Shown here: in pieces, positions 4,284-45,289 of the stretch
How positions within the stretch are numbered: the stretch's first letter is position 1
Layout: each line of letters begins with the position of its first letter
Virus record (IMG/VR): IMGVR_UViG_3300045988_109839
Coordinates: 1-45,289 of that record
Reading direction: 5' to 3' (one strand)
Origin: a virus
Length of the DNA stretch: 45,289 nucleotides
Translations under genes and position numbers: made by a program
Notes under the pieces: model-generated
What the model saw: the letters and a program-made list of their open reading frames with translations, nothing else
The model's database searches: none
What the model was told of the DNA's origin: nothing

Positions 4284-6437
4284 CTATTCCCCTCTAGCAT
4301 CTGCTAACATATCATTTATATTACCTTCAGCACCAAAGACATCACGTAAAACTTTGTTTACATCAAGACCTGCTTGTTGTGCAAGAACCTCAACTCTGCG
4401 GTGAATTTGGTCTTCATCTAAAGGAACACCTCTATCATCAGTGGGGTTACTATTGACTAAGATTTTTAATTGAGCTATCTGTTGGTCATAATCTGAAAGA
4501 GTGGGGGTATCATTCTCAGGGTTATAATTGGACTTAGACTGTGTTGTCTCAGCCTGTTCACCCGGAATCAGTCCACGCTTCTTTTTGAATTTTAAAAGCT
4601 TGTTCAATCTTGCTGTGGCTCTATTAGCTGCCTTCTGTAGCTTTATGTATGCATCAGATTCACCATCAACATTAGGGTCTTTATACGCTTTATACCATTC
4701 GGCATAGGTCTCTGTATCCTCAATATATTGATAGCCATTTTCATAATCCCAAAAGTGTTTAGCTTCTGCATCTCCTGCACCAAAGCCATAGTAATTAGCA
4801 GACCTACGTGTTTCACGTAAAATACTCCTACTCATCGTAGCCTTAGTTGTCTCCGGCAAGTTAGAGCTATTAATAATCTGCATCTGCTCACTAGGGTCAT
4901 TGGTCTGCAAAAGAGCCATATTGATTCTGTCTCTTTCCTCAGCATCACGTTGAGCCTTAACACGCTGAGCCTGTGCATGTGCTGCAAGGATAAGCTGACG
5001 TACTTTCTGTACACGTTGAGGACTATAGGCAGCAGCAGACTGCTCTTTAGGATTAGCAGCTTTCATACCACCATGGTAATCAGCAAGATGCAGATGTCTG
5101 CCTGTGCCAGCATCATGGAATAAGACCTCACCAAAATACTGCTTAAAATAAGACAATGCTTTATTAGCCTGTGCTTCGTCCACATTATCACCTAAATAAA
5201 TATCCACAGCATTACCTTTAGTATGCTCTGAGTTTGGTACGCCACCCACAGATGCATTATGCTCTGCTGTGCGGTAACCACTAGTAATCTGTGCATCCTT
5301 AAAGCCTAGCTGATAGATAGCACCACCAACCATAGGTAACACACTTTTCATAGTGGGGGACAGGTCTGCTAAGTCGGGGTTGTCTCCCTGCGAGATAGGC
5401 AGGTTAGCTTCAGGAATACCATCAGCATTTGTAGTTTCCGTAGGTAACTGAGACAACAATGCTTCAGCTTTTGAGAGGTCAACAGTGCCATCAGGACGTG
5501 TGCATTTAGACACAATATCATCGGTAACTCTCAGGTTGAAGTTGTCTGCAATCTTGGTGTAGGAGGGATAGAGGTTAACCATCTGCTTTAAAGACAAACC
5601 ATCTTCGTATTGATAGTCACCTAAGGCATCCAATCTTGCTGTATCAAAATCTTGGTCAGCAATCATCTGAGCAAGAGGGGCAACAGCTTTAATGAAGCCA
5701 TCTCTATCTCTAGCACCTAACTGAACCTTGCGTAACGCTTCATTACCACGAGTGAGGAAGTCTTCACCCTTAGCTCCACTATACACAAGGTCTTGAAACT
5801 CACTAGAACCTAACATGACCATCTTCTGACGTTTATCATCATTGATTCTCTTGTCAGCTTCATTAGCTATTTTTATTGTGTCTTGAACAGCACCCTCATA
5901 ATAGCCTTGGTCAAATGCTACCTTATTAGAGATACCATCATCACTGAAGTTAGCTCTGTTCTCCTGCAGATACTTATTGAAAAGACTAACCGCTTCAGAC
6001 ACACTCTTAGGCTTTTCAGAAGCAGGGTCATTCATCCATTGCTCTTTGGCATATTGGCTTGCCATTTTACCAATGCCTTTTTCAAGGACAGCCATAGCGT
6101 AGCGGTTATCTGTCAAGTCAAATTCATCACTAGAGTTCTGCAAAGCTGCCATGCGGTCAAACTTCTTCAGGTCTTCTTGTGTCTTACCTGCAAGGAGTTT
6201 GTCTGCATTGACCAATACTGCTTGGTCTTGGGTACGCTTCTCATCCGCAATACGCTCCTCCATGATATTCTTACCAAGGAGACCTAAAGATGATGCTAAG
6301 CGTTGCGCATCTAAATCTGTACGTTGTGAGATGCCTGCAGATGCACTGATTTTATTTAAGGACAGCGCATAGGGAATCTCCGGTTGTTTTGAAAACTGCC
6401 GTTGAGTACCTATCGCTGCCTGTACTTCTTTACTCAA
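4284..6437 (-). CDS. Internal core protein (gp15-like by position) with an embedded peptidase M15-type peptidoglycan hydrolase domain
   Basis: 717-aa ORF with a TTG start 8 nt after AGGAGG. The motif SGYRTAEHNASVGGVPNSEHTKGNAVD...HLHLA resembles the endolysin at 38071-38427 (GYRCPAHNAEVGGVSNSQH..GTAADV). Confidence 0.65.
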   Translation of the reverse strand: MSKEVQAAIGTQRQFSKQPEIPYALSLNKISASAGISQRTDLDAQRLASSLGLLGKNIMEERIADEKRTQDQAVLVNADKLLAGKTQEDLKKFDRMAALQNSSDEFDLTDNRYAMAVLEKGIGKMASQYAKEQWMNDPASEKPKSVSEAVSLFNKYLQENRANFSDDGISNKVAFDQGYYEGAVQDTIKIANEADKRINDDKRQKMVMLGSSEFQDLVYSGAKGEDFLTRGNEALRKVQLGARDRDGFIKAVAPLAQMIADQDFDTARLDALGDYQYEDGLSLKQMVNLYPSYTKIADNFNLRVTDDIVSKCTRPDGTVDLSKAEALLSQLPTETTNADGIPEANLPISQGDNPDLADLSPTMKSVLPMVGGAIYQLGFKDAQITSGYRTAEHNASVGGVPNSEHTKGNAVDIYLGDNVDEAQANKALSYFKQYFGEVLFHDAGTGRHLHLADYHGGMKAANPKEQSAAAYSPQRVQKVRQLILAAHAQAQRVKAQRDAEERDRINMALLQTNDPSEQMQIINSSNLPETTKATMSRSILRETRRSANYYGFGAGDAEAKHFWDYENGYQYIEDTETYAEWYKAYKDPNVDGESDAYIKLQKAANRATARLNKLLKFKKKRGLIPGEQAETTQSKSNYNPENDTPTLSDYDQQIAQLKILVNSNPTDDRGVPLDEDQIHRRVEVLAQQAGLDVNKVLRDVFGAEGNINDMLADARGE

Positions 6438-24791: not shown

Positions 24792-24884
24792 GAATAAACC
24801 TCCTTAAAATTTATTGAGAAAAGACAACACACAGAAAGGAAATAGAAACGACGCGATTTAGATTTTGAAAAGCGTGTTGTCTTT

Positions 24885-24909
24885 TCTTCATGTTTATGCC
24901 CCATTAGCA
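24885..24909 (-). promoter_or_regulatory. Candidate phage-RNAP promoter (conserved motif copy)
   Basis: Minus strand: TGCTAATGGGGCATAAACATGAAGA. One of 5 related copies, all on the coding strand. Confidence 0.45.
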
Positions 24910-24955
24910 TTTCCTTTAGTTACCTAAAGGATTTTAAAGGTACTATAAAGACAAT

Positions 24956-25028
24956 AGAGACCTTTAGTTACCTTAGGTAGGTTATTATTAATTATTAATA
25001 ACATAACCTTAGGCACTTAAAGGTCTCT
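24956..25028. repeat. 73-bp AT-rich imperfect palindrome between two promoter-like motifs (candidate origin element or RNA hairpin)
   Basis: agagacctttagttaccttaggtaggttattattaat | tattaataacataaccttaggcacttaaaggtctct. It is flanked by ccttagg and ctatag word repeats. Confidence 0.7.
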
Positions 25029-25067
25029 ATAGAATCTATAGGAAACTATAGTTATCTATTGTCTTCT

Positions 25068-25092
25068 TTTTCATGTTTGTGACCCATTAGCA
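25068..25092 (-). promoter_or_regulatory. Candidate phage-RNAP promoter (conserved motif copy), overlapping the RNAP stop codon
   Basis: Minus strand: TGCTAATGGGTCACAAACATGAAAA. Confidence 0.45.
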
Positions 25093-27684
25093 GAATATGT
25101 ACTTACTGTCCAATACACTATTCAGGTCTAAATTGCCCTTTTTAGGGGGAGCAGGTAACTCTTTATTTACCAATGGTTGCAGATATTGTCTAAACTCCTC
25201 CAAGACATCATGCTCTGTATACATATCTACAAATGCTTTACGCACAATATCATACATCAGCTTAGCTTGTGACATAGGGCAACCATAAGAATCATGCACC
25301 ATAGTAAAGTGATTGATTCCAGCATCCTTTGCTCTGCATACTGTCATTTGAAGATGACAAGCATCCATAGAGTGAATGAAATTTGGAGCGATACCATTAG
25401 CCTGTTTTGTCTTATCAATCACACCTGTTTGGTGAGGGATGTAAACCCTAAATCTCTTTCCAGCACAGCGTAACTTAATCACCTTAGATTCATACTTTAA
25501 ATAATTTTGTTGCAACAGTAAGCCTAAAGGTGTACACCAAGACACTACATTTGCATTTTTGGTGACAAGTTTGGAAACTTTATGTAACCAATCCATACCC
25601 TCAACAGCACGTACAACAGTAGCACCTACAGAGTTCCATATAAGCTCAGCCATATACATAGCACATTGGTAGGCATTAGTCTCTGTAAAACCACAAGCAG
25701 TCTTAGCATTTAAAGCAGGTTTGATTGTGTCTTCCATAATCTGTTCAGTGTAGCCACGCTTCTTAGCACCATAGGCAAGGGTCATGGTAGGTCTTTTAGT
25801 TACAGTGCGATTGACACCATAGTTTAACCAAATCTGCGCCATAGTCTTTGTTCCGAATTTTGTCTTCAGCTTTTCTTCGTCCCATTCGTCAATAGTGCCT
25901 GACATAGCATCCTGCTTCAAGACAACATTTACCTTGTCAGCCACCAAACGATAGATGTCATTGGGTTTGTCTTGGGGTACAAGGTTTACCGCAGTGCCAC
26001 CGATGGGGTCTCTAAGAATAGCAGAGAAGTGTTGCAGACCTGAGCATGTGCCATCCTGCGCATAGGGGAGACCTGTTACCCATCCGACAATAGAGCCATG
26101 CTCAGCTATCCATTGTTTCGCTTTCGCCCATTCAAGACACCATGCGAGAAGCTGTACAGGTTTTTTGTCTTTATGTAACCACCAAAGGTTACCCATAGGG
26201 TCTTTTGCTACATCAAGAATAACTTCTTCATTGTCATATACCCATTGGATGCGGTCAGCATAGCTGATTTTGTCTTCGCCGGAGAGGTTAGCTCCGGTAA
26301 TGGCGAGCCATTCAATATCTTTAGGGTCTTGACAAGGAGGTGTGTCTGAAAAGAGCAGCAATCCTTTGCAAATATCGTCACCTTGGGGACTGAAAGAGGG
26401 GATAGGATAGATGCGTCCTCTAAAATCCATGTTCCAAGGGAAATAGATGTTTTCATAAAGACTAAATTTATCAGCAACTGTAATCATAGCATTTGTACGA
26501 TTGATAATAGAAATTCGACGTTTTAAGCCTTTCCACCACGCTGCCTTATCTTTTTTATATTTTTTAATCTCTTCTGCTGTTGCCCCTTCAGGTAAGGTGG
26601 TAGGCTCAGATTCTTTTAAATCTGTACTCATGATGTGTGATTTTTCTTTACCGCAGGGGATATAGCCACGCTCCTTGCATTGCTTGATAACCTCTAAAAC
26701 ATCCTTATTGATATGCCATGGTGTTGCTTGAATAGCATTGACAGCCTTATAGACATCAGGTGTATCAAGCTGAGCAAGGCGTGCTTTATAGCCTTTACTG
26801 AAAGAGTTATGCACCCCTTTAAGACGTAAGAAAGTATAGAAAGCTGCAAGGTCTCCATAGTACCCACCCTCATCATATGCTACCCAAGGTTTTGGAGGGA
26901 TAATCATCGGATAACACTTATGTGCATAATAAAGCATATTCTCTTCATTACGTTGCCATGCATCCACGAATTGAGGGGTAGGAACAAGATGTGCTTGTGT
27001 GTAACTATCTGAATCCGACATCCAATAGCCTGTTGCTTCTTCTGTCAAAGTCAATAAGGCTACCCCTAAGTTGATAATACCTTCATTGTCTCCTTGTTCC
27101 CACGTGGGGCAGGTGTAACCACATTTCTTAATGGCTTGCTTCATATAGACATAGCGGTAATGAATACCTATACGCTTGTCAATACCTTGCATTGCTTTTT
27201 TGTTTTTGTCTTCTTTAGGTAATGTAGTAAGCCAATTTTCAAAACATTTTGCTTGATATTCATACATGAGACTAAAACCAACATGCAGTCCTACATTGTT
27301 CAGAAAGGCTGCCTTTGTATTCAAGCCTGTTGTGAGGGCATTTATAAGGCAGGAGAGTGTTACAGTTGTGCAGGTGTTAGCAATAGCATCCATATCCACA
27401 TTACCCTCTGCATCTGTGAACGCAGTCTTCAGGTCATCCAAGATATAGATAAAGTTAGGCTTAACACCAGCTTTGGGTTTCATGTTTTTAGTGAGCCATT
27501 GCAGCATAGCATCCTTTACAGCGAGTACCTTGTGGTTAAAAAAGGCTTGTCCAATAGGGAGGGCAGTATCAACCATGCCTTTTTCCTTTGCGATTCTGAG
27601 CGCTTCACATGTTGCTTCATAGCCATCTTGTCTAGCGGAAGATTCCAGCTTAAGCTGCTCTTCAAACAGTTCTTTTTTAGTCAT
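25087..27684 (-). CDS. Single-subunit DNA-directed RNA polymerase (T7 gp1-like)
   Basis: 865 aa. DGTCSGLQHFSAILRD, RTVTKRPTMTLAYGAKK, IAPNFIHSMDACHL and MVHDSYG correspond to T7 DGSCSGIQHFSAMLRD, RSVTKRSVMTLAYGSKE, IAPNFVHSQDGSHL and LIHDSFG. Confidence 0.97.
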   Translation of the reverse strand: MTKKELFEEQLKLESSARQDGYEATCEALRIAKEKGMVDTALPIGQAFFNHKVLAVKDAMLQWLTKNMKPKAGVKPNFIYILDDLKTAFTDAEGNVDMDAIANTCTTVTLSCLINALTTGLNTKAAFLNNVGLHVGFSLMYEYQAKCFENWLTTLPKEDKNKKAMQGIDKRIGIHYRYVYMKQAIKKCGYTCPTWEQGDNEGIINLGVALLTLTEEATGYWMSDSDSYTQAHLVPTPQFVDAWQRNEENMLYYAHKCYPMIIPPKPWVAYDEGGYYGDLAAFYTFLRLKGVHNSFSKGYKARLAQLDTPDVYKAVNAIQATPWHINKDVLEVIKQCKERGYIPCGKEKSHIMSTDLKESEPTTLPEGATAEEIKKYKKDKAAWWKGLKRRISIINRTNAMITVADKFSLYENIYFPWNMDFRGRIYPIPSFSPQGDDICKGLLLFSDTPPCQDPKDIEWLAITGANLSGEDKISYADRIQWVYDNEEVILDVAKDPMGNLWWLHKDKKPVQLLAWCLEWAKAKQWIAEHGSIVGWVTGLPYAQDGTCSGLQHFSAILRDPIGGTAVNLVPQDKPNDIYRLVADKVNVVLKQDAMSGTIDEWDEEKLKTKFGTKTMAQIWLNYGVNRTVTKRPTMTLAYGAKKRGYTEQIMEDTIKPALNAKTACGFTETNAYQCAMYMAELIWNSVGATVVRAVEGMDWLHKVSKLVTKNANVVSWCTPLGLLLQQNYLKYESKVIKLRCAGKRFRVYIPHQTGVIDKTKQANGIAPNFIHSMDACHLQMTVCRAKDAGINHFTMVHDSYGCPMSQAKLMYDIVRKAFVDMYTEHDVLEEFRQYLQPLVNKELPAPPKKGNLDLNSVLDSKYIFC

Positions 27685-27714
27685 TATAAATACCTCCTAG
27701 TTATAATGGGTCTT

Positions 27715-27739
27715 CTTCATGTTTGTGCCCCATTGGCAC
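27715..27739 (-). promoter_or_regulatory. Candidate phage-RNAP promoter (conserved motif copy) about 30 nt upstream of the RNAP start codon
   Basis: Minus strand: TGCCAATGGGGCACAAACATGAAGA, followed by AGACCCATTATAACTAGGAGGTATTTATAATG. Confidence 0.45.
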
Positions 27740-27935
27740 TTGCTTGGGTGTTTTTTGTCTTTGGCATCCTTTGGCTTGCCTTGCTTGCCCAAAAGTACCC
27801 TTGCTTGCCTTGGCAGCTTGGGTTGCCCCGGCATCCCTCGTTTCGTTTCACTCCGTGCGTCGCACAAGACAACACGTTTCGTTTCGCTCAGGTGAGCTTC
27901 GACAACCACGAACATCGTTTCGTTCCGTTCGGTTG
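27740..27935. repeat. Repeat-rich, relatively G+C-rich non-coding spacer upstream of the RNAP gene
   Basis: Three copies of cgtttcgtt(t/c)c at 27839, 27875 and 27916. Several copies of (c)ttgcttg(c/g) at 27741, 27781 and 27801. ggcatcc occurs twice. The palindrome gtgcgtcgcac is also present. Confidence 0.7.
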
Positions 27936-30390: not shown

Positions 30391-30884
30391 TAGTAGCTGG
30401 TGACTGTATAATGGTAGTAGCAATAGCAACCAATGGTGACAATAGCCTTTATAGTAATACAACCAATAGCAGCTCATGGATATAATGGATGTAGTAGGGA
30501 TAGTAGATATAGTAGTTATGGTAGGTCTGATAGATACCTAGGGCATATATACAGATACATTTTATGCCTAATTTTTACCTAAATTGTACTATGTGTTCAT
30601 TATAATGTACATATGTTTGCAATATCCCCATAAAAACTAGATAGTTATATATACCTTGCTTGCTTATCTCAGGGCATAAACAAGGTAAATTTAACATAAC
30701 ATGTATTATCGGACGTAACTTGTACCCTTGGGCGCACTGATGTAGCATGCACTGTTTAGATGTAGTGTATACTATTTCGCTGGATGCCTGAAGACCCCGG
30801 GGCACGGGGGGAAACCAAGCAATCTCTATATTAAATATACCCTTTCACAATTTTTGGCAATTTTTGAAGTTAGGAGGTATTAAA

Positions 30885-32039
30885 ATGCCATCTAAACCCA
30901 CTCGTAGAAGACCTAAAGGCGAAGGGTCTATAATAACCCTCCCTAGTGGTAAAGTGCGTATCAGGGTAGAATTAGACCCTGTGGATGGCAAAAGGCGATG
31001 GCTATCAGCAACAGCAGACACAAAAAAGGAAGCTGTGGAGAAGCTGAAGAAGCTTCAGAGAGACAAAGAGGATAGAGGTCTGCAAGTAAAAGCAGAGGAA
31101 GACACAATAAAGTATCAAGGCGAGGTGTACCTTAAGCACCTAGAAGCTCAGCGGATGTCAGGGTCTGTAATATTGACCACGAGACGTGTCCTGAAGTTCC
31201 TAGACAACACCGCTAATGGCTTAGCGTTATCTAAGGTTACCACTCATACTATAGATACCATGCTCTTAGAATGGCAACAAAAGAACTATGCAACTAATAC
31301 CTATCTTAATTACATAGGACGCTTAAGGCTCTTTTTCAGATGGTGTGTGGAGCAAGACCTCATTGGAAAGTCACCTGTAACTTCGATGCAGAAGACACCA
31401 AAGAGTGATAAACCTAAGCATGAAGTGGTTGTCTTATCACAAGAGGAGCACGAGCGAATCAAAGCGTTCCTCCTGCCCCTATGGGAGCACAAGGAGAAAC
31501 CTATGCTGAAGTATCAGTTCTACGCTCTGTATTGTCTTGCCTACGAAACAGGCATGAGAGAAGGGGAGCTATTAGCTCTTACATGGGATTGTCTTGATGA
31601 TGCTGCTAATACAATATCTGTAAAAAGAACCTTAGCTAAGGATAAGAACAACAAGACTATAGTTACATACCCTAAGACACAAGCCGGGTATCGCACAATC
31701 AAAATATCTGAGAAGACAACACAGCTTCTTATGTCTTTAAAACCCCTTAGCTTTGACAAGTCACCATATATCTTCTATAATAGGAAAAGAGATAGCTTCT
31801 ATGTGGAGCGGTTGCTTATCCATGCATGGGATTTCACTAGGAAGGGCGCAGGTATCACTAGACCTTTCACGTTCCATGGGATAAGACACACAAACGCATC
31901 CAACATGATTTACAAGCATGTACCTATAGCTCTTATAACGGAACGCTTAGGACACACCAGCATAGCGGTCACCTATGCTATCTATGGGCACATCTTGCAG
32001 GAATGTTCGGAAAAACACGTTGCTGTGATAGAAGCTTAG
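30885..32039 (+). CDS. int: Tyrosine recombinase / phage integrase
   Basis: GMREGELLAL (Arg), HGIRHTNAS (H-x-x-R) and LGHTSIAVTYAIYGH (His and Tyr nucleophile). The N-terminal SAM-like region is present. RBS taggagg. Confidence 0.9.
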   Translation: MPSKPTRRRPKGEGSIITLPSGKVRIRVELDPVDGKRRWLSATADTKKEAVEKLKKLQRDKEDRGLQVKAEEDTIKYQGEVYLKHLEAQRMSGSVILTTRRVLKFLDNTANGLALSKVTTHTIDTMLLEWQQKNYATNTYLNYIGRLRLFFRWCVEQDLIGKSPVTSMQKTPKSDKPKHEVVVLSQEEHERIKAFLLPLWEHKEKPMLKYQFYALYCLAYETGMREGELLALTWDCLDDAANTISVKRTLAKDKNNKTIVTYPKTQAGYRTIKISEKTTQLLMSLKPLSFDKSPYIFYNRKRDSFYVERLLIHAWDFTRKGAGITRPFTFHGIRHTNASNMIYKHVPIALITERLGHTSIAVTYAIYGHILQECSEKHVAVIEA

Positions 32040-32427: not shown

Positions 32428-32966
32428 TTGTGTTGTACCATAGCACCCTTAGCTTTACCATCTGTATCTACAAGTACAGTAAGCTCTAGTGCTTTATCAG
32501 CCTGATAGTTCCTTTGGATAGAGATAGGAACATATGCATGTTCATTCACATAAGACACACCAGCACCCAGCTCCCAAGAGGGGCGCAGCTTAGACAACAC
32601 AGGAGTGAGGTCTACAGTCTGTTCTACAGTAGCCTTTACTCCCGGTGGTGCATCATTAGCAGAGCCACTAGTGCTATCAGGTTGATTAATAGTACCAGCA
32701 GTTCTTTTAACAATCGGCACACTCACTTTCTCGCCATTAATAACAGCGACGTATTTGTTAGACAACACCAAGTCCTCTTCTTTTGGGTTGTCTTTGGTCT
32801 CAGCATGGATTCCTGTGGTAGACAAAAGTCCACCCTTGGAATCTGAGCTGGGCATAGGGGGTTCTGAAGCTTTGTTGTCTCCTCTTAGATATAAGTAGCA
32901 GCACCCAGCTCCAATTGTAAAGCTCAGTAAAAGAGCGATTATATTCTTAGTTCTCGTGGTAATCAT
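32412..32966 (-). CDS. Membrane-anchored protein (184 aa), hypothetical
   Basis: N-terminal TM helix (IIALLLSFTIGAGCCYLYL), then a Ser/Pro-rich linker and a beta-rich domain. Confidence 0.5.
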   Translation of the reverse strand: MITTRTKNIIALLLSFTIGAGCCYLYLRGDNKASEPPMPSSDSKGGLLSTTGIHAETKDNPKEEDLVLSNKYVAVINGEKVSVPIVKRTAGTINQPDSTSGSANDAPPGVKATVEQTVDLTPVLSKLRPSWELGAGVSYVNEHAYVPISIQRNYQADKALELTVLVDTDGKAKGAMVQHKWLIK

Positions 32967-32970
32967 AGCA

Positions 32971-33153
32971 TTACATACCTATAATGGTTTGCAGCAGACT
33001 GTTTGCAATCTGCAAGAAACCAAGTAGCGGTCTATATTCGGGATTGAACGATGAGGATAGCGTATCCACGAACCACAAGAAGACAAACAGGGGGATGGAT
33101 ATTAAAAGACCATAGAGGAAGAAGGTCTTTAGTTTCATTAAGGTTTCTTTCAT
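32971..33153 (-). CDS. Small membrane protein (60 aa)
   Basis: One clear hydrophobic helix and possibly a second. RBS aaaggag. Confidence 0.5.
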   Translation of the reverse strand: MKETLMKLKTFFLYGLLISIPLFVFLWFVDTLSSSFNPEYRPLLGFLQIANSLLQTIIGM

Positions 33154-33169
33154 GGTATATAGTCTCCTT

Positions 33170-33420
33170 TAAGAAGGTTATTTAAGGTAATAATAAAAAA
33201 TACCCTAAGGAATCCTTAGGAGGTATAGGAAACCTTAGGGTATCTATAAGTATCTATTAATTAGGTTTATTAGTAATAATAACAATTACCCTTAGGTATC
33301 TATAGTCTCTATAGTACCAAGGGTATCTAAGGGTTACATATGGAATCATATAAGGTCATATGGTATCTATAGTAACTATAAGGTATCTATAGTTATCTAT
33401 AGGTATAATATAATGTCCCT
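33170..33420. repeat. Array of short repeats (ggtatctata(g), ccttagg, ctatag) and an AT-rich block; candidate genome-end or secondary-origin region
   Basis: At least 8 copies of tatcta(t/a)a(g). The palindrome cctaaggaatccttagg is present. The block accttaggg..attaattaggtttattagtaataataacaattacccttagg resembles 24970-25012. Confidence 0.7.
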
Positions 33421-33433
33421 TTCCTACTCTTAT

Positions 33434-33480
33434 CAAGTATGTGACCCATTAGTTTCACAGGTTTATATGACCCATTAGCT
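33434..33480 (-). promoter_or_regulatory. Two tandem degenerate copies of the promoter-like motif (core CTAATGGGTCA)
   Basis: Minus strand: CTAATGGGTCATATAAACC (overlaps the terminase stop codon) and CTAATGGGTCACATACTTG. Confidence 0.35.
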
Positions 33481-39443: not shown

Positions 39444-39680
39444 TTACTTGAAAAGGACAAGATATACTTTGTCATATATTTGTCTTAAGGCACGTTTGAT
39501 ACAAGACACATCCTCGTGGTACTCCATAGCAAGCTTTTGTTGGGAGTAGTCACTAATGATGATTTTGTCGAGTATGTCTTGTTGTCTTGGTGTGAGCTTG
39601 GCTTCGGTAGTAACAGACTTGTACTCAGTGAGAGTAGAGGACTTAAGCCAAGCACGAGCCTTTTTACGATTCTTTTCCAT
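39444..39680 (-). CDS. Small sigma-70 region-4-like / HTH protein (78 aa)
   Basis: LTPRQQDILDKIIISDYSQQKLAMEYHEDVSCIKRALRQIYDKV resembles the region 4 HTH of ECF-type sigma factors and LuxR-type proteins. ATG (MEKNRKK) lies 6 nt after AAAGGAG. Confidence 0.45.
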   Translation of the reverse strand: MEKNRKKARAWLKSSTLTEYKSVTTEAKLTPRQQDILDKIIISDYSQQKLAMEYHEDVSCIKRALRQIYDKVYLVLFK

Positions 39681-39743
39681 GATAACTCCTTTCTGCCCAC
39701 CCAAACCCCTAAGGGGAGACAACAACCCTGTCTTTTTACTCAA

Positions 39744-40257: not shown

Positions 40258-40662
40258 TTAATAATCTTCAACTGTAGGCTTCATGTCATTTATTGCTTTA
40301 CCCCATGAAAAAGTTACACCACTTGTAAGCCAACAATTAAAAAGCAATGTATAGGTTTTATTTGGGGTTACGCCTACAATGGAATCAATATCTTGATGCT
40401 CATAGAGTTCTCCGTTTTCATCAGAGCGTGAGAAACCTTCGCCCCATGTTTTATTAGTCATTTTATTTTCTATAGAAGCATCACTAGAATCGTGCGGGTT
40501 ACCTTCAGCCGAATCAACTTCTGCAAACACTTTGATTCTTTTAACCCCTGGTGGAACAGTAAAAGTTATTGTTTTATTATTTGCCTCCTCATAACTCCAC
40601 GTCTTGCTACCATCTTCAACCTTTACTGCACCATTTTTCATCATCATTCTATTAAGTCCCAT
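40258..40662 (-). CDS. Hypothetical beta-rich protein downstream of the tail fibre (134 aa)
   Basis: Translationally coupled (TAATG) to the end of the tail-fibre gene. Confidence 0.45.
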   Translation of the reverse strand: MGLNRMMMKNGAVKVEDGSKTWSYEEANNKTITFTVPPGVKRIKVFAEVDSAEGNPHDSSDASIENKMTNKTWGEGFSRSDENGELYEHQDIDSIVGVTPNKTYTLLFNCWLTSGVTFSWGKAINDMKPTVEDY

Positions 40663-42596
40663 TATGCACCACCTTCTAACTTAGAAGCTTGCACGATACT
40701 TGTTACAGTGTCACTAACATCTTTCATCATCAAAATGTTTAACAACAGACCTGCACTTGTAATAGCTACGTCAGACGCAGAACCTATGTATTTAATAGTT
40801 CCAGCGTTGGTGATGGTCAGAGGGTAGTCAGCAGATGATGCAATATACGCTGTAAAGACAGTGGATTCATTAATTTGTAATCCAGTCGAAAGGCTACTGA
40901 GGTCGAGCGTAAATGCCCCTGTTGCCTCATATTGCATTAGGGACACTGAGGGGTTACTACCTGTATTGCTTATCTTACGAGAAAGGTATTTTTCATATCC
41001 CAATTTCACTTCCTTAAAGTCTTGTTGCTCTTCCCATGTGTTAGCAGCAGAACTTTTTGCGTAGGTTATGGAGATTACATTTCCATCGCCATCTTGTGTA
41101 GCCTTAGTTGCAGTACCGATGAACGCTTTTGCTACAACCTCAGCCAAACCGGTCTTGCCAGAACCATTCAAGAAGTGATATTGTTTAATGGGGTTCTTAT
41201 AGTCCATAGTGCCATCAGAGAATCGCCAATTAAGGTAGATTACACCATCACCATTATTGTAATCAGCAGCCTCTTTAGGGACAAAATCAAATTCATTGTA
41301 GTTACTAATTAAGTTGGTAGCAGTCCCTTGTTTAACATATCCATCTAAGGCACTTTTAATAACCTTATTCTGCACAGGGTTAGTGCTAGTGTCAGACAGC
41401 GCAGTATCAATATCAATACCACCATCAGCACCCTTTTCGCCTCTTGGCAACGTAAAGTTAAACACAGCGTCATTAGCAGTACCAACATTAGTAACAATAG
41501 CCTCACTACCCGGAGCACCTGTAGTCACTGTACCGATTCTGATAGTAGCAGCAGCACCTGTTGCACCCCGGTCACCCTTTGCACCTGTATCACCTTTGAC
41601 ACCCTGTACGCCCTGTATGCCCTGCAAACCTTGGTCGCCTTTCTCACCCTTAATATTCACAGAGGGAGGGTTCGCAAGTCCTGCCTTATTAGTCCATGAT
41701 AAGACACCACTAGTAGACACACTAGGCGTAAACACATTGACATTCTCACTATAGTTCTTAGCATTATCCATGTAGGTTTTAGCATTATCCATGTAGGTTT
41801 TAGCGTTATCCCTGTAGGTCTTTGCTTCCCTTGCACTATTTTGCGCACCAGCAGCAAAGTTACTAGCAGTAGTAGCAGCAGATTGAGCTGCTTCTTGACT
41901 AGCACCTGCATTATCAGCAGAGGTCTTAGCGTTGGCAGCATAAAGGGACGCATCACTCTTAGCAGTTTCTGCTGCTGTTTTGTAACCTTCGGCTAACCTT
42001 GCGCTTTCCGCAGCACTTGCAGCAGATACACTAGCGGACTGTGCACTCTTATAGGCACTATCTTTGCTGTTACCTGCTGTGTTAGCAAATTGTTCAGTCT
42101 GTGTCTTGATAGCGTTCATGCGCTGAACAAAGGAATCCTCGGTGTTCTCTAAATAATTCTTGGTTACAACATCCTGTGCTTCTGTCGGGTCAGACACATT
42201 AGACACACGATAGTTGCGTCCTTGCCATACACCCCTTTCCTCATCAAAAACAATAGAATGAGTTTTAGACCAATCGTTTGCCTCCTCTAAGATGTGTAAC
42301 TGCTGTACCTCTGCAATTGTCATATCTATAGCCTTCAGGATACTTGCATCTGCCCAAGACACCAATCGAGTGGTAGGAGTGCTACGATAGATATATACCA
42401 CAGCATCTTTAGCTGGTGCAGAATCAAACATAACCATACGATTACTTATAGTGAATCCCTCGGAAACCTCTGCATCGTTAACAGCCACATGGACAAAGGA
42501 TGGACGCAAATAATCAAAGGGAACAGAGAAGTTTGTTTGAGAACCATCTGCTGTGTAAGTAATAGATGTAGCCAATTTAATAGCTATATTAATCAT
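40662..42596 (-). CDS. Tail fibre protein (gp17-like N-terminal adaptor, Ala-rich coiled coil, collagen-like Gly-X-Y tract, C-terminal receptor-binding part)
   Basis: ITYTADGSQTNFSVPFDYLRPSFVHV...RLVSWADASILKAIDMTIAEVQQLHILEEAND parallels the T7 gp17 N-terminus. GEKGDQGLQGIQGVQGVKGDTGAKGDRGATG is collagen-like. The start is taken at MINIAIK; the track's upstream extension is a terminator hairpin. Confidence 0.88.
   Translation of the reverse strand: MINIAIKLATSITYTADGSQTNFSVPFDYLRPSFVHVAVNDAEVSEGFTISNRMVMFDSAPAKDAVVYIYRSTPTTRLVSWADASILKAIDMTIAEVQQLHILEEANDWSKTHSIVFDEERGVWQGRNYRVSNVSDPTEAQDVVTKNYLENTEDSFVQRMNAIKTQTEQFANTAGNSKDSAYKSAQSASVSAASAAESARLAEGYKTAAETAKSDASLYAANAKTSADNAGASQEAAQSAATTASNFAAGAQNSAREAKTYRDNAKTYMDNAKTYMDNAKNYSENVNVFTPSVSTSGVLSWTNKAGLANPPSVNIKGEKGDQGLQGIQGVQGVKGDTGAKGDRGATGAAATIRIGTVTTGAPGSEAIVTNVGTANDAVFNFTLPRGEKGADGGIDIDTALSDTSTNPVQNKVIKSALDGYVKQGTATNLISNYNEFDFVPKEAADYNNGDGVIYLNWRFSDGTMDYKNPIKQYHFLNGSGKTGLAEVVAKAFIGTATKATQDGDGNVISITYAKSSAANTWEEQQDFKEVKLGYEKYLSRKISNTGSNPSVSLMQYEATGAFTLDLSSLSTGLQINESTVFTAYIASSADYPLTITNAGTIKYIGSASDVAITSAGLLLNILMMKDVSDTVTSIVQASKLEGGA
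41759..41821 (-). repeat. Three tandem 21-bp repeats inside the tail-fibre gene (encoding AKTY(M/R)DN heptads)
   Basis: tagcattatccatgtaggttt occurs twice, followed by tagcgttatccctgtaggtct. Confidence 0.9.
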
Positions 42597-42604
42597 CTCC
42601 TTTA

Positions 42605-42645
42605 CAAAAATAAAAAGACCACCAGCTCTAAAAGAGCCAGCGGTC
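42605..42645 (-). terminator. Strong intrinsic terminator between the GGDEF gene and the tail-fibre gene
   Basis: Minus strand: GACCGCTGGCTCT-ttt-AGAGCTGGTGGTC forms a 13-bp stem including G.U pairs, followed by TTTTTATTTTTG. Confidence 0.7.
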
Positions 42646-42659
42646 ACCAATTCAATTTA

Positions 42660-43211
42660 TTATCTCCTCATCTGAGGAAAATTAGCATAAAATTTTTGTT
42701 TGTCTGCATACATTGCTTTTTCGGCATATGCTGTGATTTCTGCAATATCCGAGAAGACACCAGCAGAGTAGCCTAAGGCAGCTAGGGGAGGGTTGTCTTT
42801 ATTCCATAGGGATTTATGGAAAGACAATACACTTCCAAGGAACTCATGAATTTTAATATCAAACCCAGCTACTATAAACTCATCACCTGATATATGATAA
42901 CAGTTATAAACAGGGGAGATAAAGGTCTCCTTAAGCTTAGCTGCAAAGTCCTTTATCAGCTTATCCCCTGCACTGTGTCCAAAGTGGTCATTGGTATATT
43001 TCAGACCATTGATGTCTGCGAAAAGGATACCAACGAAACCAAAGTGATTAGTGGTACTGTCACGCTCAAAGGCTTGCTTATTGTACAGTCCGGTGAGAGC
43101 ATCACGCATAGCGCCCTGCTCATAGATACGAGTTATGTCCGCTAAAAGTTGGGCATAGCTATTTTTAAACTGTTGCTGTATTTCACGTTGAATATCAGCA
43201 CTTAATTCCAT
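42660..43211 (-). CDS. Stand-alone GGDEF-domain nucleotide cyclase (putative diguanylate cyclase; SGDEF active-site variant, no I-site)
   Basis: DALTGLYNKQAF, FADINGLKYTNDHFGHSAGD, HISGDEFIV (encoded at 42877-42891) and AEKAMYADK are collinear with the GGDEF-domain consensus. Only about 35 aa of N-terminal helix are present, with no sensor domain. No RxxD lies 5 residues upstream of SGDEF. Confidence 0.8.
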   Translation of the reverse strand: MELSADIQREIQQQFKNSYAQLLADITRIYEQGAMRDALTGLYNKQAFERDSTTNHFGFVGILFADINGLKYTNDHFGHSAGDKLIKDFAAKLKETFISPVYNCYHISGDEFIVAGFDIKIHEFLGSVLSFHKSLWNKDNPPLAALGYSAGVFSDIAEITAYAEKAMYADKQKFYANFPQMRR

Positions 43212-43303
43212 GGGACAGAACTCCTTTCATTGTCCGTGCAAAGCAACAATGGATAGGTATGAAGTTAGTAGCTGTACATTGGAATCACCTTCTGAAAGTG
43301 GAA

Positions 43304-43696
43304 CTACTTAAACCAAGATTCAATAGGAGGTATAAGTATATAAATCAAGATAAGTAATAAGGTGGAGACATCCACAACATAGAAGCATTTTTGACGTTTC
43401 CATGTTCCATATTTCCAACAAGAATGAGTGAATGGTACCACAAGCTCATTTAATATGAAGTACAGGGGATAGGCGAGTATAGCATTAAAGTTACCAAAGA
43501 GGATACCACCCCATATAAGTAATGGGATTCTTTTTCGATACCTTTCAATGGCAAAAGCAAGCCCCTCACTAAATGTTTGCTGCTCAGGTGCTGCATACTT
43601 CCAACCATGTGCTTTTAAATGATTTTCAAGAGCAGTTTCGCCCCACAGTTCATCAAATGTTTTATGACCATTTGGTCTATCACTCATACACATCAC
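43304..43696 (-). CDS. Small membrane protein (about 127-130 aa), hypothetical; first gene of the moron cassette
   Basis: About 55 aa of soluble N-terminus, then two hydrophobic segments (IPLLIWGGILFGNFNAILAYPLYFIL and VSTLLLILIYILIPPI). The likely start is the third ATG, at 43687, 8 nt after GAGG. Confidence 0.5.
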   Translation of the reverse strand: MMCMSDRPNGHKTFDELWGETALENHLKAHGWKYAAPEQQTFSEGLAFAIERYRKRIPLLIWGGILFGNFNAILAYPLYFILNELVVPFTHSCWKYGTWKRQKCFYVVDVSTLLLILIYILIPPIESWFK

Positions 43697-43707
43697 CTCT
43701 TACCCTC

Positions 43708-43745
43708 ATTATATCATATTATTCAGATGCTTGTATATACTTCTG
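43708..43745 (-). promoter_or_regulatory. Candidate host-type promoter with an extended -10 (TGATATAAT) driving the membrane-protein/GGDEF cassette
   Basis: Minus strand: TATACA-18 nt-TATAAT, preceded by TGa. This is the same extended -10 sequence as the RHH promoter. It is embedded in the gp16-like remnant. Confidence 0.4.
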
Positions 43746-43850
43746 ATTAAGGTACTTTTTGTTAGGAGTTCTGTAAATATTGTTGCGCAGTTTTATGAGC
43801 TTATCAATATTAGCACGCTTCTCTGCACCATTGGTCGGAAGGTAGAAGGG
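43719..43850 (-). pseudogene. Remnant of a second copy of the gp16-like gene 3' end
   Basis: It translates as ...NGAEKRANIDKLIKLRNNIYRTPNKKYLNQKYIQASE*. The intact gene ends ...DADTKRAKLDELNKKQNSIFRTANKKYLNYKYIQAPK*. DNA similarity extends over about 43722-43830 versus about 84-195. Confidence 0.8.
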
Positions 43851-44018
43851 TTATTTTCCTTTTAAGCCTTTATACACCAAAAGAAGGAAGGTGACAATCA
43901 CAGCAAAGAAGCTCCACGTAACCTGTCCTGCGAAACCTCCTCCATTGATATAGCGACATATCATAGAAAATACTAACATAAACAAGCTTATTAGAAAAGC
44001 TTTTGTCATTGTTGACAT
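43851..44018 (-). CDS. Small membrane protein (55 aa)
   Basis: Not in the ORF track. RBS GGGAGGG lies upstream of the ATG. MSTMTKAFLISLFMLVFSMICRY...WSFFAVIVTFLLLVY contains two TM helices. Confidence 0.45.
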   Translation of the reverse strand: MSTMTKAFLISLFMLVFSMICRYINGGGFAGQVTWSFFAVIVTFLLLVYKGLKGK

Positions 44019-44064
44019 AATAAATACCCTCCCTTATCTTTGTATAAATTCACCTAAATTATAA

Positions 44065-44077
44065 CATTTATTTAGGT
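44065..44077. repeat. 13-bp target-site duplication of the IS element (second copy at 76-88)
   Basis: catttatttaggt directly abuts both inverted-repeat ends. Confidence 0.8.
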
Positions 44078-45289
44078 GGTAGATTGCAAGTGCAAATTGA
44101 ACAAGATTTATCAAGCAACTATATCAGTAGAATACACCTTATCAAGAAAAGTGTCGAACAGTTCATCAGGTCTGTAGTAGCCTAGAGATTTGCGTGGTCG
44201 AGCATTCATCTTATCGGCCATGCGCAGTATCTCGTCCGCTGAATATTCGTCAACAGATTTACCTTTCGGCAGGTACTGACGCAACATCTCGTTGTGACGT
44301 TCGTTCTGTGGGCGTTCCCATGAGGAGAACGGATGCGCAAAGTATATCTTCGTCCCGTAGCGTTCCTCGTACTTATTGAAGTCTTGAAACTCGGCACCAT
44401 TGTCAGCGGTAATGCTTTTAAATACAGCGCTAAACCGCTTGCCGTATAGCCGTCGTAGCTGTGCCATAGCCTCCTGTACTCCTTTTGTGGTGCGTCCGGA
44501 TATCTTTATGGCGATGTACTTATGCGTAACCATCTCTACTAGAGTGAATACGCATGATTCCTTGCCCTCACGGTGACCAATGACAGTGTCAGCTTCCCAG
44601 TGACCTATCTCGAGCCGCTCAGCGATTTTCTTTGGACGTTGGTCGATGCTAGTGCCGCGTAACCGCTTATGCTTGCGTGTCCAGTTGCGATGCTTCTTAC
44701 GGTTCAGCAGTTGTGGCACATCAAAGACGGTAAATGGTAGCTTGCTGCGATGTAGCATGTTGTAGATGCTCTTGGTGCATAGTATCTGATTAGGCGCATA
44801 GCGAGACTCCAACTTAACCCTGCCGATGAACTCATCAATAGAGGCGGTCTCATCCCTGACGGCGGTGCTCAACTCTTGGATGAACGCTTCGGCAACGGTA
44901 GTGGCTAACTTTAACGGCCTGCGGCAGTTCTTGCGATGCTCTTCATAAGCAGCTTGACCGCGCTTGGCGGTGTATACTGGCTGACGTCCTCTAGCGCTCT
45001 TCTTGACCGGTGTACCTCGGCGCAGCTCATAATATACCGTGGTATGAGCACAGCCTACGTACTCGGCAATAGCACGAAGCGTTAGACCTTGACTATGTAG
45101 CACTTGAATCATGCCACGTTCTTCTTGGATTAGATGTTTTCCTCGTTTACGTTTTTCTTGAATTGTGATAGAATTAGTTTGATCCATAGTAGGCTCCTTT
45201 GAATTATACTAGCAAACTAATTCTAACATAGGATGTCCACTGTGGATTTTTTATTTTATTTTTTGTTCAAGTTGATTATACAATCTACC
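44078..45289 (-). mobile_element. IS30-family insertion sequence (1212 bp)
   Basis: 27-bp imperfect terminal inverted repeats (ggtagattgcaagtgcaaattgaacaa versus ggtagattgtataatcaacttgaacaa, 21 of 27 identical). It holds a single DDE transposase ORF, is flanked by a 13-bp direct repeat, and looks visibly more G+C-rich than the flanking phage DNA. Confidence 0.88.
44111..45187 (-). CDS. IS30-family DDE transposase
   Basis: 358 aa. N-terminal HTH (GLTLRAIAEYVGCAHTTVYYELRRG). HWEADTV..., ITADNGAEF and ERPQNERHNEMLRQYLPKG are IS30-type D, D and E regions. tataat and AAAGGAG lie upstream. Confidence 0.92.
   Translation of the reverse strand: MDQTNSITIQEKRKRGKHLIQEERGMIQVLHSQGLTLRAIAEYVGCAHTTVYYELRRGTPVKKSARGRQPVYTAKRGQAAYEEHRKNCRRPLKLATTVAEAFIQELSTAVRDETASIDEFIGRVKLESRYAPNQILCTKSIYNMLHRSKLPFTVFDVPQLLNRKKHRNWTRKHKRLRGTSIDQRPKKIAERLEIGHWEADTVIGHREGKESCVFTLVEMVTHKYIAIKISGRTTKGVQEAMAQLRRLYGKRFSAVFKSITADNGAEFQDFNKYEERYGTKIYFAHPFSSWERPQNERHNEMLRQYLPKGKSVDEYSADEILRMADKMNARPRKSLGYYRPDELFDTFLDKVYSTDIVA

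Follow-up and report, generated by a model that had tools for sequence, protein, structure and literature searches.

A moron-like operon with a sensor-less GGDEF protein and exchangeable membrane-protein genes in a temperate T7-like phage of Phascolarctobacterium

The IMG/VR virus record IMGVR_UViG_3300045988_109839, analysed here over its whole length of 45,289 nucleotides (nt) and referred to as the window, represents a temperate T7-like podovirus that lysogenises Phascolarctobacterium, a gut Negativicute. Between its gene for a gp16-like internal virion protein and its tail-fibre gene lies a small island that encodes a stand-alone GGDEF-domain protein of 183 amino acids (aa) next to small membrane proteins. 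This region may be a phage moron, namely an operon read by the host RNA polymerase within the late structural region, whose sensor-less cyclase would make cyclic di-GMP (c-di-GMP), and this reading is regarded as having about an even chance of being correct. At the level of sequence, the region has the attributes of a moron, including its own promoter and terminator, a slot between gp16 and gp17, variable content, and dispensability for the phage. An earlier note on this DNA had already described a self-contained moron, and both transcription signals are indeed present and kept across relatives.

The comparison comprised 51 sequences, that is, the window and 50 related loci drawn from metagenome contigs, one GTDB scan, and one IMG/VR scan. 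A common layout is found across the 50 loci, including a Phascolarctobacterium prophage, in which gp16 is followed by a TATAAT box after its stop codon, variable membrane open reading frames (ORFs), a leader, the GGDEF gene, a terminator, and the fibre gene. On the minus strand of the window, the order across the junction is the gp16-like gene, an IS30-family insertion sequence (IS), a 55-aa ORF, a 127/130-aa ORF, the GGDEF gene, and the tail fibre (Table 1). The features that the earlier note had listed, namely the 55-aa ORF, the promoter box, an ORF with two transmembrane (TM) segments, the GGDEF gene, and the terminator, were all recovered at their positions on this strand. Its placement of the island between the core-protein and tail-fibre genes stands with respect to the gp16/gp17 slot, but the IS30 element in between had been overlooked, as had a remnant of a gp16 3' end and the origin of the cyclase by deletion from a PAS-GGDEF protein.

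The assignment of the 183-aa protein to the GGDEF family, suggested by the earlier note, is borne out by profile searches with hidden Markov models and by structure prediction. The protein matches the Pfam GGDEF profile (PF00990) with E=6.3e-14 and 52.5 bits (threshold 23.8) over profile positions 1-156 of 161, and TIGR00254 with 54.6 bits (cutoff 37.4). It contains the motifs LTGLYN, DINGLKYTND, and SGDEF (residues 108-112), and consists of an N-terminal helix (residues 5-34) followed by the catalytic domain. The sensor domain and the I-site are both absent, as had been proposed; no RxxD is present five residues before SGDEF, where the local sequence reads ...SPVYNCYHISGDEF. Across 19 family members, D66, K71, N74, and D83 are invariant, along with G109-F112 and K171, and S108 is nearly invariant.

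The active-site hairpin motif of such enzymes has been defined as [G/A/S]G[D/E]EF, with roles assigned to guanine-binding Asn and Asp residues (PMC6456294), and the phage protein possesses the hairpin motif, the metal-binding Asp, and the guanine-binding Asn and Asp. Enzymes with an SGDEF motif, such as ECA3270 and MbaA, can be active and make c-di-GMP (PMC3974145, PMC8079147), in agreement with what the earlier note had said of SGDEF variants. Hypr enzymes, which yield products of the cyclic GMP-AMP type, are recognised by a Ser instead of an Asp at the Watson-Crick-face position nine residues past the sugar-face Asn, as in the Ser348/Asn339 pair (PMC6456294). In the phage family this position, nine residues past N74, is occupied by the invariant D83 within GHSAGD, which is the guanine-specificity Asp and places the protein outside the Hypr type. 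The preference for GTP and c-di-GMP over a Hypr product, for which the earlier note had argued, is thus retained, but the residue that supports it is D83 and not the Asp of ..TND.. that had been named. The cyclase probably makes c-di-GMP.

The AlphaFold2 model of the 183-aa form, with a mean confidence (pLDDT) of 89.5, consists of one 30-residue amphipathic helix and a domain with the GGDEF fold. The top Foldseek matches of this model are SiaD, DgcR, the coiled-coil and GGDEF protein DgcB, WspR, and PleD. All of the best 50 matches in the PDB are GGDEF-domain structures, nearly all of them diguanylate cyclases (DGCs), with E-values down to 3e-11, and no mCpol, OptS, or Cas10 protein is among these 50. 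DgcB of Caulobacter (6ttr, TMq 0.71-0.74), SiaD (7e6g, 0.70-0.71), and GCN4-WspR (3i5c, 0.59-0.63) share with the model an architecture of one long N-terminal helix ahead of the GGDEF domain. These proteins carry I-sites and/or upstream regulatory partners, whereas the phage cyclase has neither, and its helix results from the fusion of two helices that followed deletion of the PAS core.

The short cyclase derives, as judged from alignment, from a PAS-GGDEF family by deletion of the PAS sensor, through which the N-terminal and linker helices were fused. Among 5.8 billion proteins searched, the 183-aa forms recovered are 69-97 % identical to the cyclase, and a more numerous group of 279-304 aa is 41-63 % identical to it. 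In the alignment, the 183-aa form is a clean internal deletion of about 110 residues relative to homologues of 280-300 aa. The first 23 residues of the cyclase align to the N-terminus of the long form, and the remainder aligns from the linker helix onward. The long form is modelled with confidence (pLDDT 87.5) as a PAS-like domain of five strands joined by a linker helix to a GGDEF domain. Over its full length it is structurally closest to the LOV-activated LOV-DGC 8c05 and the PAS-GGDEF-EAL protein PA0861 (5xgb), and in Pfam it has only a weak PAS_9 match. Identical deletion boundaries occur in two short-form lineages that are 69 % identical to each other, and the cyclase is under purifying selection, with a ratio of nonsynonymous to synonymous substitution rates (dN/dS) of 0.09-0.19, from which it follows that the sensor-less protein has long been kept by selection. 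Natural losses are also found, one in which residues 1-141 are missing (L132) and one that is a deletion fusion (P0017), and the cyclase is therefore dispensable for the phage.

More distant long-form homologues (41-48 %) are encoded on further phage-like contigs, which differ in their gene content; in two cases the neighbours are genes for giant polyvalent proteins. The PAS-SGDEF family is therefore a recurrent phage cargo in gut Firmicutes. In the host, two Phascolarctobacterium chromosomal loci encode a 296-aa PAS-GGDEF homologue (49 % identity) between the gene for transfer-messenger RNA (tmRNA) and recG. This homologue, at 4285-5669 in L014 and 4485-5871 in L004, lies directly downstream of the tmRNA gene and is followed by a TM1266-like small gene. 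The interpretation of the host gene as a remnant of phage integration was rejected, as a comparison of the ssrA region with the window gave no attP-like match and the gene has no flanking direct repeats.

Transcription signals of the host type are the second conserved property of the island. Two extended -10 boxes, P1 (TGTTATAAT) and P2 (TGATATAAT), precede the 55-aa and 127-aa ORFs, respectively. In IS-free relatives, the P1 box lies a few nt past the gp16 stop codon, and P2 (43737-43708) combines a -35-like TATACA at 43732-43737, an 18-nt spacer, and a TATAAT with the TG extension. The sequence TGNTATAAT has 3 sites in the whole window against 3.2 expected, two of which are the P1 and P2 boxes; a single site is therefore no more than would be expected by chance, and its significance derives from conservation across relatives. 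A perfect TATAAT occurs at most 25 nt past the gp16 stop in 49 of 49 junctions, and TGNTATAAT in 39 of these 49, regardless of the cassette that follows (in the window itself, the counted TATAAT belongs to the end of the IS30 element, and the original box is now P1, just past the IS). The last 60-100 nt of gp16, including the -35-like TATACA, are 84-87 % identical, although the C-terminal region of gp16 falls to 43-50 % identity at the protein level.

Further downstream, the junction between cassette and leader, GAGGTGATTCCAATGTACA, reads as a Shine-Dalgarno sequence followed by a mini-ORF of an ATG, 2-4 codons, and a stop, giving MYSY and a stop in the window and MYN or MYSH and a stop elsewhere. 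Its 17-nt core, GGTGATTCCAATGTACA, is found in 46 of the 50 loci, including lineages in which the cyclase gene is just 69 % identical, and the junction may act as a linker for recombination, as a leader for translation, or in regulation. A GC-rich hairpin with a T-run lies 3' of the cyclase gene in all relatives examined, and the stems differ with compensatory substitutions.

The genes between promoter and leader are the variable part of the region. At least one membrane ORF is located between gp16 and the GGDEF sequence in all 50 of the 50 loci, and at least six unrelated cassettes are found beside a cyclase that is 96-98 % identical. The most frequent is c0, a protein of 114-125 aa with three TM segments (23 loci), followed by c2, of 73 aa (14 loci), and the trio c5/c3/c4 (7-8 loci). 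Cassette c7, the 55-aa ORF, is present in 4 loci (the window, L012, L102, and L126) and is the only ORF between gp16 and GGDEF in L102 and L126; cassette c9, the 127-130-aa ORF, is present in the window and L009, with one further relative at 48 %; and cassette c16, of 118 aa, is present in L013. Conserved linkage of homologues of the 130-aa and 55-aa proteins with GGDEF genes had been named beforehand as a test of a functional pairing, and such linkage does not hold among the 50 loci. The conserved flanks, that is, the 3' end of gp16 and the GGTGATTCCAATGTACA block, are likely to serve as substrates for cassette exchange through homologous recombination.

The ORF of c9 spans 43304-43696, and Shine-Dalgarno spacing and gene calls in relatives make the ATG at 43687 its likely start, so that the ORF of roughly 130 aa that the earlier note had placed behind the extended -10 box retains its two hydrophobic segments but is likely to be 127 aa long. 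The protein has a soluble N-terminal part of about 55 aa followed by two TM segments, and a dN/dS of 0.09 in comparison with L009 indicates that c9 is a real gene. In an exhaustive HMMER search of 1.84 billion representatives with the 127-aa protein, one real relative was obtained, P0038 (48 %), which is encoded on a 677-bp contig in the same slot ahead of the same cyclase; the 130-aa family amounts to a handful of homologues, all within this phage group. A 26-residue soluble stretch of the protein (residues 32-57) also resembles residues 3893-3918 of P0039, a protein of 4,318 aa (42 % identity, E=6e-10).

The other cassette proteins measure 55-152 aa and are mostly hydrophobic; several of 55-84 aa are nearly wholly embedded in the membrane and have no soluble nucleotide-binding domain. 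The 127/130-aa and 55-aa proteins contain no Pfam, PADLOC, NCBIfam, or PHROG domain, and none of the cassette proteins matches an entry of these four collections at or above its curated threshold. Deep homology between c9 and c0, the two largest families tested, was rejected (BLASTP E=28, hhalign probability 0.6 %). A holin function was likewise considered and not adopted, since only the L013 cassette (L013 11-367) has a match to Phage_holin_5_2, which is below threshold (26.5 versus 29.2 bits), and a separate small ORF, holin-like in the relative L009, is located beside the phage endolysin.

Evidence of past exchange is preserved in the window itself. Between the two small ORFs, a second gp16 3' end has left a non-coding remnant, which supplies the TATACA of P2, and a similar remnant is present in L012 (7419-7529). 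In L009, the sequence homologous to the remnant is the real end of gp16, with the 127-aa gene directly next to it, which implies that the window holds two tandem cassette units joined by a recombination scar. The remnant is thus read, from its sequence, as the scar of a recombination between phages with different cassettes.

The transposase of the IS30 element, of the DDE type with an N-terminal HTH, is identified by NCBIfam transpos_IS30 (7.8e-69), NF033563 (232 bits, cutoff 80), and the Pfam domains HTH_38 and rve, and the termini of the element are the imperfect inverted repeats GGTAGATTG...TTGAACAA. A 13-bp direct duplication, ACCTAAATAAATG, borders the element at 76-88 and 44065-44077; this is unusually long, as 2-3 bp is typical of IS30. 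The target is a palindrome right after the gp16 stop codon, and the uninterrupted site can be seen in L102, L012, and L126. Among the 51 sequences compared, this genome alone carries the element, and its lack in the other 50 loci indicates a recent insertion. Through the insertion, the -10 box of the 55-aa ORF is cut off from the -35-like element in gp16, and the IS itself carries TGTATAAT at its end.

In the mechanism proposed for the moron, a promoter of the sigma-A/sigma-70 type would start transcription past the gp16 stop codon, using the perfect TATAAT, usually as TGnTATAAT, and a weak -35 element inside the gp16 3' end. The transcript would run through the interchangeable genes for inner-membrane proteins, a leader of about 80 nt, and the GGDEF gene, and would halt at the terminator before the tail fibre. 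The GGDEF protein, a putative diguanylate cyclase in which PAS loss fused the N-terminal helix to the linker helix, would dimerise through this long helix and produce c-di-GMP constitutively, presumably without product inhibition given the missing I-site. In a lysogen, the level of c-di-GMP would rise and shift envelope or surface traits under c-di-GMP control, possibly with exclusion of other phages, and during lytic growth the phage RNA polymerase probably also reads the cyclase gene. The small membrane proteins would be independent, exchangeable cargo, most likely acting in superinfection exclusion or envelope modification and not as receptors for the cyclase product.

Several observations weigh against this mechanism. 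An isolated GGDEF domain is usually inactive unless it is dimerised, and the dimer is inferred from the predicted N-terminal helix, which resembles that of coiled-coil and GGDEF structures. The family shows invariant departures from the consensus, namely H106 (Arg in most DGCs, as in RxGGDEF), S108 (in place of the first Gly), and F174-Y175 (consensus G-R), which could alter activity, rate, or product; this mapping is based on motifs, with F174-Y175 taken as the equivalent of PleD R446. Rfam gave no match of any kind (gathering thresholds over the whole window; E<=1 over 42400-44200), and neither a c-di-GMP riboswitch nor another c-di-GMP receptor was found on the phage. Furthermore, the operon lies inside a late transcription unit, so that a lytic role is inseparable from a lysogenic one, and the terminator may primarily attenuate late transcription of the phage.

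An alternative explanation is that the cyclase is an auxiliary gene of the lytic cycle, carried mainly on a late transcript of the phage polymerase, with a late burst of c-di-GMP manipulating the envelope, metabolism, or lysis timing of the cell and the hairpin acting primarily as an attenuator like T-phi of T7. T7-like cyanophages embed auxiliary genes in late operons, and in the window the operon lies among structural genes that share its strand; no strong terminator was detected that would separate the cassettes from gp16. The terminator lies about 10 nt ahead of the tail-fibre ribosome-binding site and leaves no room for a new promoter, so that expression of the fibre requires read-through. 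A gene read only by the phage polymerase would, however, have no need of the host-type -10 box that is present in 49 of 49 junctions, the phage is temperate, and no conserved promoter motif for the phage polymerase was found near the island; the T7-type promoter consensus gave nothing usable at 42600-44100, and CCTAAGGTAACTAAAGG and repeated 10-mers are confined to the early and middle regions. A mainly lytic role is considered unlikely. The same low probability is assigned to the explanation that c-di-GMP synthesis is not the main role of the GGDEF protein. It would serve instead as a sensor-less decoy or partner that heterodimerises with the host PAS-SGDEF/CGDEF enzyme of its family, or with another host protein, and so bypasses or poisons the regulation of that enzyme, or it would be a degenerate GGDEF protein whose role is non-catalytic or whose product is altered. 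GGDEF domains act as dimers, the phage protein retains the linker helix and not the sensor, the 49 % identical host homologue has the same linker and C-terminal signatures, the residues H106, S108, and F174-Y175 are non-canonical throughout the family, and other functions have been described for degenerate GGDEF domains (PMC3974145). On the other side, the metal-binding, guanine-binding, and GDEF catalytic residues are all invariant, which fits selection for catalysis, and the long, sensor-bearing versions in other phages of differing gene content fit a self-sufficient enzyme better than a host-specific decoy.

The earlier note had also raised the possibility of a signal-plus-effector defence module with an architecture like that of minimal CBASS/Pycsar systems. 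In such a module, the constitutive product of the cyclase would control the adjacent membrane proteins, which would kill or protect the cell on superinfection, in the manner of Panoptes, where the effector is triggered by loss of the signal, or of CBASS/Pycsar with 2TM effectors. The arrangement invites this comparison, since a minimal cyclase stands beside small two-TM proteins in one operon with a host-type promoter in a prophage, the membrane ORF is never missing from the 50 loci, and a fixed prophage slot filled by variable cassettes is reminiscent of defence hot spots. That no such system was known, as the earlier note had put it, is outdated, as Panoptes, which combines an mCpol cyclase with a 2TM effector, was published in 2025 and sets a precedent for a constitutive palm-domain cyclase with such an effector as an immune system (PMC12657218). 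In Panoptes, the synthase OptS is an mCpol, a minimal Cas10-like palm that almost entirely lacks the GGDEF motif, and its product is 2',3'-c-di-AMP or cA3; the effector OptE joins two TM segments to an obligatory nucleotide-binding domain, either a beta-barrel (S-2TM-beta) or a CARF domain (type II CARF-TM), with SAVED as a further domain type of such effectors, and the synthase gene comes first (PMC12657218). The likeness of the phage island to Panoptes lies in a minimal palm-domain cyclase, constitutive in Panoptes, encoded beside a two-TM protein. By contrast, the phage enzyme is a canonical, guanine-specific GGDEF protein and not an mCpol or CD-NTase, its membrane partner is not conserved but drawn from at least six unrelated families (including c9 and c0) beside a nearly identical cyclase, several of these proteins have no soluble domain able to bind a nucleotide, and the gene order is opposite to that of optS-optE. 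Neither the cyclase nor the membrane proteins have PADLOC matches, and no beta-barrel, CARF, or SAVED domain was found in them. The locus thus has neither the mCpol synthase, nor the nucleotide-binding 2TM effector, nor the conserved synthase-effector pairing of Panoptes, and a defence module of this kind is very unlikely. A related version is given an even slighter chance. In it, the operon would be a single prophage-borne unit and a GGDEF-based analogue of Panoptes: the feedback-free cyclase would hold a c-di-GMP or related signal high in the lysogen, and the swappable membrane proteins, exchanged by way of the flanking linkers, would be alternative outputs or anchors gated by this signal that kill or seal the cell once an incoming phage disturbs the signal.

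DGC genes have been documented on integrative and conjugative elements (ICEs), islands, plasmids, and phages (PMC10672970). GGDEF-like sequences are present in 114 GenBank phage records, some of them annotated as diguanylate cyclase; BFVD contains stand-alone phage GGDEF proteins of 146-183 aa, and PHROGs lists GGDEF families of 'unknown function'. As phage-borne GGDEF genes are already widely annotated, the cargo type is a known one, and the locus is, on its gene content, a well-documented example of it and not a new immune system made of cyclase and effector. The DGCs of SXT/R391 ICEs and islands and those of Bacillus phage SP-15 (183 aa), phage G (gp350), and Bordetella phages FP1/CN1 are similar in being GGDEF accessory cargo expected to alter the c-di-GMP pool. 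The present case differs in its setting, a temperate T7-like podovirus of a gut Negativicute, in the fixed gp16/gp17 slot with conserved promoter and terminator, and in the sensor deletion from a PAS-GGDEF protein. Among GenBank phage records, none reaches 60 % protein identity to the cyclase, and no functional study of any phage GGDEF protein was found in the searchable literature.

A comparison can also be drawn with the morons of HK97 and other lambdoid phages, which consist of a promoter, a gene, and a terminator inserted between conserved genes, as for the superinfection-exclusion membrane protein gp15 of HK97. The resemblance extends to an autonomous unit between structural genes that is dispensable, varies among close relatives, and encodes small membrane proteins. 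The differences are that the present phage is T7-like and has its own RNA polymerase, that the slot is bounded by linkers (the gp16 3' end and GGTGATTCCAATGTACA) which seemingly mediate exchange, and that the cargo includes a synthase of a second messenger.

The locus opens no new class of immune system. It is of value in several respects. Phascolarctobacterium is an abundant succinate consumer of the human gut, and given an active cyclase, the second-messenger signalling of this little-studied diderm Firmicute would be rewired by a prophage that is widespread. The occurrence of sensor-bearing (282 aa) and sensor-deleted (183 aa) enzymes in otherwise similar phages constitutes a natural experiment, and the region offers a clean case of the exchange of small-membrane-protein cassettes between conserved linkers under one conserved promoter. 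The compact 183-aa enzyme would be a convenient first phage GGDEF protein for functional characterisation.

Table 1. Coordinates of the island and of associated features in the window
Feature	Position	Strand	Remarks
gp16-like internal virion (core) protein, 1398 aa	79..4275	minus	phrog_9854 2e-64; relatives with Pfam LPD38
IS30-family insertion sequence, 1,212 bp	44078..45289	minus	transposase ORF 44111-45187 (358 aa)
Promoter P1, extended -10 box	44058..44066	minus	upstream of 55-aa ORF
55-aa two-TM ORF (cassette c7)	43851..44018	minus	two TM segments
Non-coding remnant of second gp16 3' end	43719..43820	minus	75 % identical to 79-180 (repeat family D1)
Promoter P2, extended -10 box	43708..43716	minus	just past gp16 remnant
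127-aa membrane protein (cassette c9)	43304..43687	minus	130 aa if from GTG at 43696
Cassette/leader junction	43264..43291	minus	62-80 nt upstream of cyclase start
Stand-alone GGDEF protein, 183 aa	42660..43211	minus	profile match and predicted fold
Intrinsic terminator	42607..42645	minus	stem 42617-42645 (13 pairs), 3-nt loop, T-run
Tail-fibre gene	40662..42596	minus	T7 gp17 N-terminal domain and collagen-like repeat; downstream island boundary
Integrase	30864-32039	plus	PHROG match
Single-subunit RNA polymerase	25087-27684		PHROG match

Positions 1-75 of the window are identical to 45215-45289 (exact 75-bp copies, repeat family D3), and the window is therefore a circular or circularly permuted assembly of about 45.2 kb. 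Because the assembly is circular, the gp16-like gene at the other end of the window lies upstream of the island across the junction. The minus strand carries almost all long ORFs. In addition to the RNA polymerase and the integrase, PHROG matches were obtained for a primase/helicase, portal, major capsid protein, tail protein, large terminase, and anaerobic ribonucleotide reductase. The description of the phage as T7-like and prophage-forming, given by the earlier note, agrees with the integrase and with a near-identical copy without the IS on a 114-kb contig of a Phascolarctobacterium metagenome-assembled genome (L012, from the GTDB scan), whose cyclase is 96 % identical; this contig is much larger than the phage, which together with the integrase fits a prophage. 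No match was found among GenBank phages by blastn with 42400-45289. The phage group is common in gut metagenomes, with 962 member sequences in the closest cyclase cluster and 44 IMG/VR contigs. The gp16-cassette-GGDEF-fibre layout was also seen on a 29-kb contig binned as Segatella copri (L013), which is probably a mis-binned phage contig.

The tail-fibre protein contains a Phage_T7_tail N-terminal domain (Pfam E=1.2e-28), and its gene truly begins with the ATG at 42596. A 99-aa ORF at 39444-39743, downstream of the tail-fibre genes, gives a weak PADLOC match to CARF3 (E=0.0033, 14.9 bits), which is probably noise. In a relative with the long-form cyclase (L003), a reverse transcriptase (RVT_1, 5100-6155) is encoded just downstream of the tail-fibre and DUF6273 genes and may belong to a diversity-generating retroelement acting on the fibre; the window contains no such reverse transcriptase.

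Several repeats are found elsewhere in the window. The decamer TGTGTTGTCT occurs in 7 copies on the minus strand, at 32601, 31723, 24831, 24480, 22248, 19454, and 15338, all in the early and middle genome with none near the island; the copy at 24831 is about 30 nt upstream of a gene start, and the decamer is a candidate core of a phage-specific promoter. Dense short direct and inverted repeats, including ATAGATACC, CTATAGA, and CCTAAGGTAAC, are clustered at 33150-33480, just past the terminase gene, and at 24930-25060, just past the RNA polymerase gene, and these arrays may represent genome ends, a packaging site, an origin, or phage promoters. The CTAATGGGGCACAAACATGAAGAA element (about 23-33 nt, minus strand) is present in 4 copies at 24884-24916, 25067-25099, 27713-27745, and 33430-33452, which flank the RNA polymerase gene and also follow the terminase gene.

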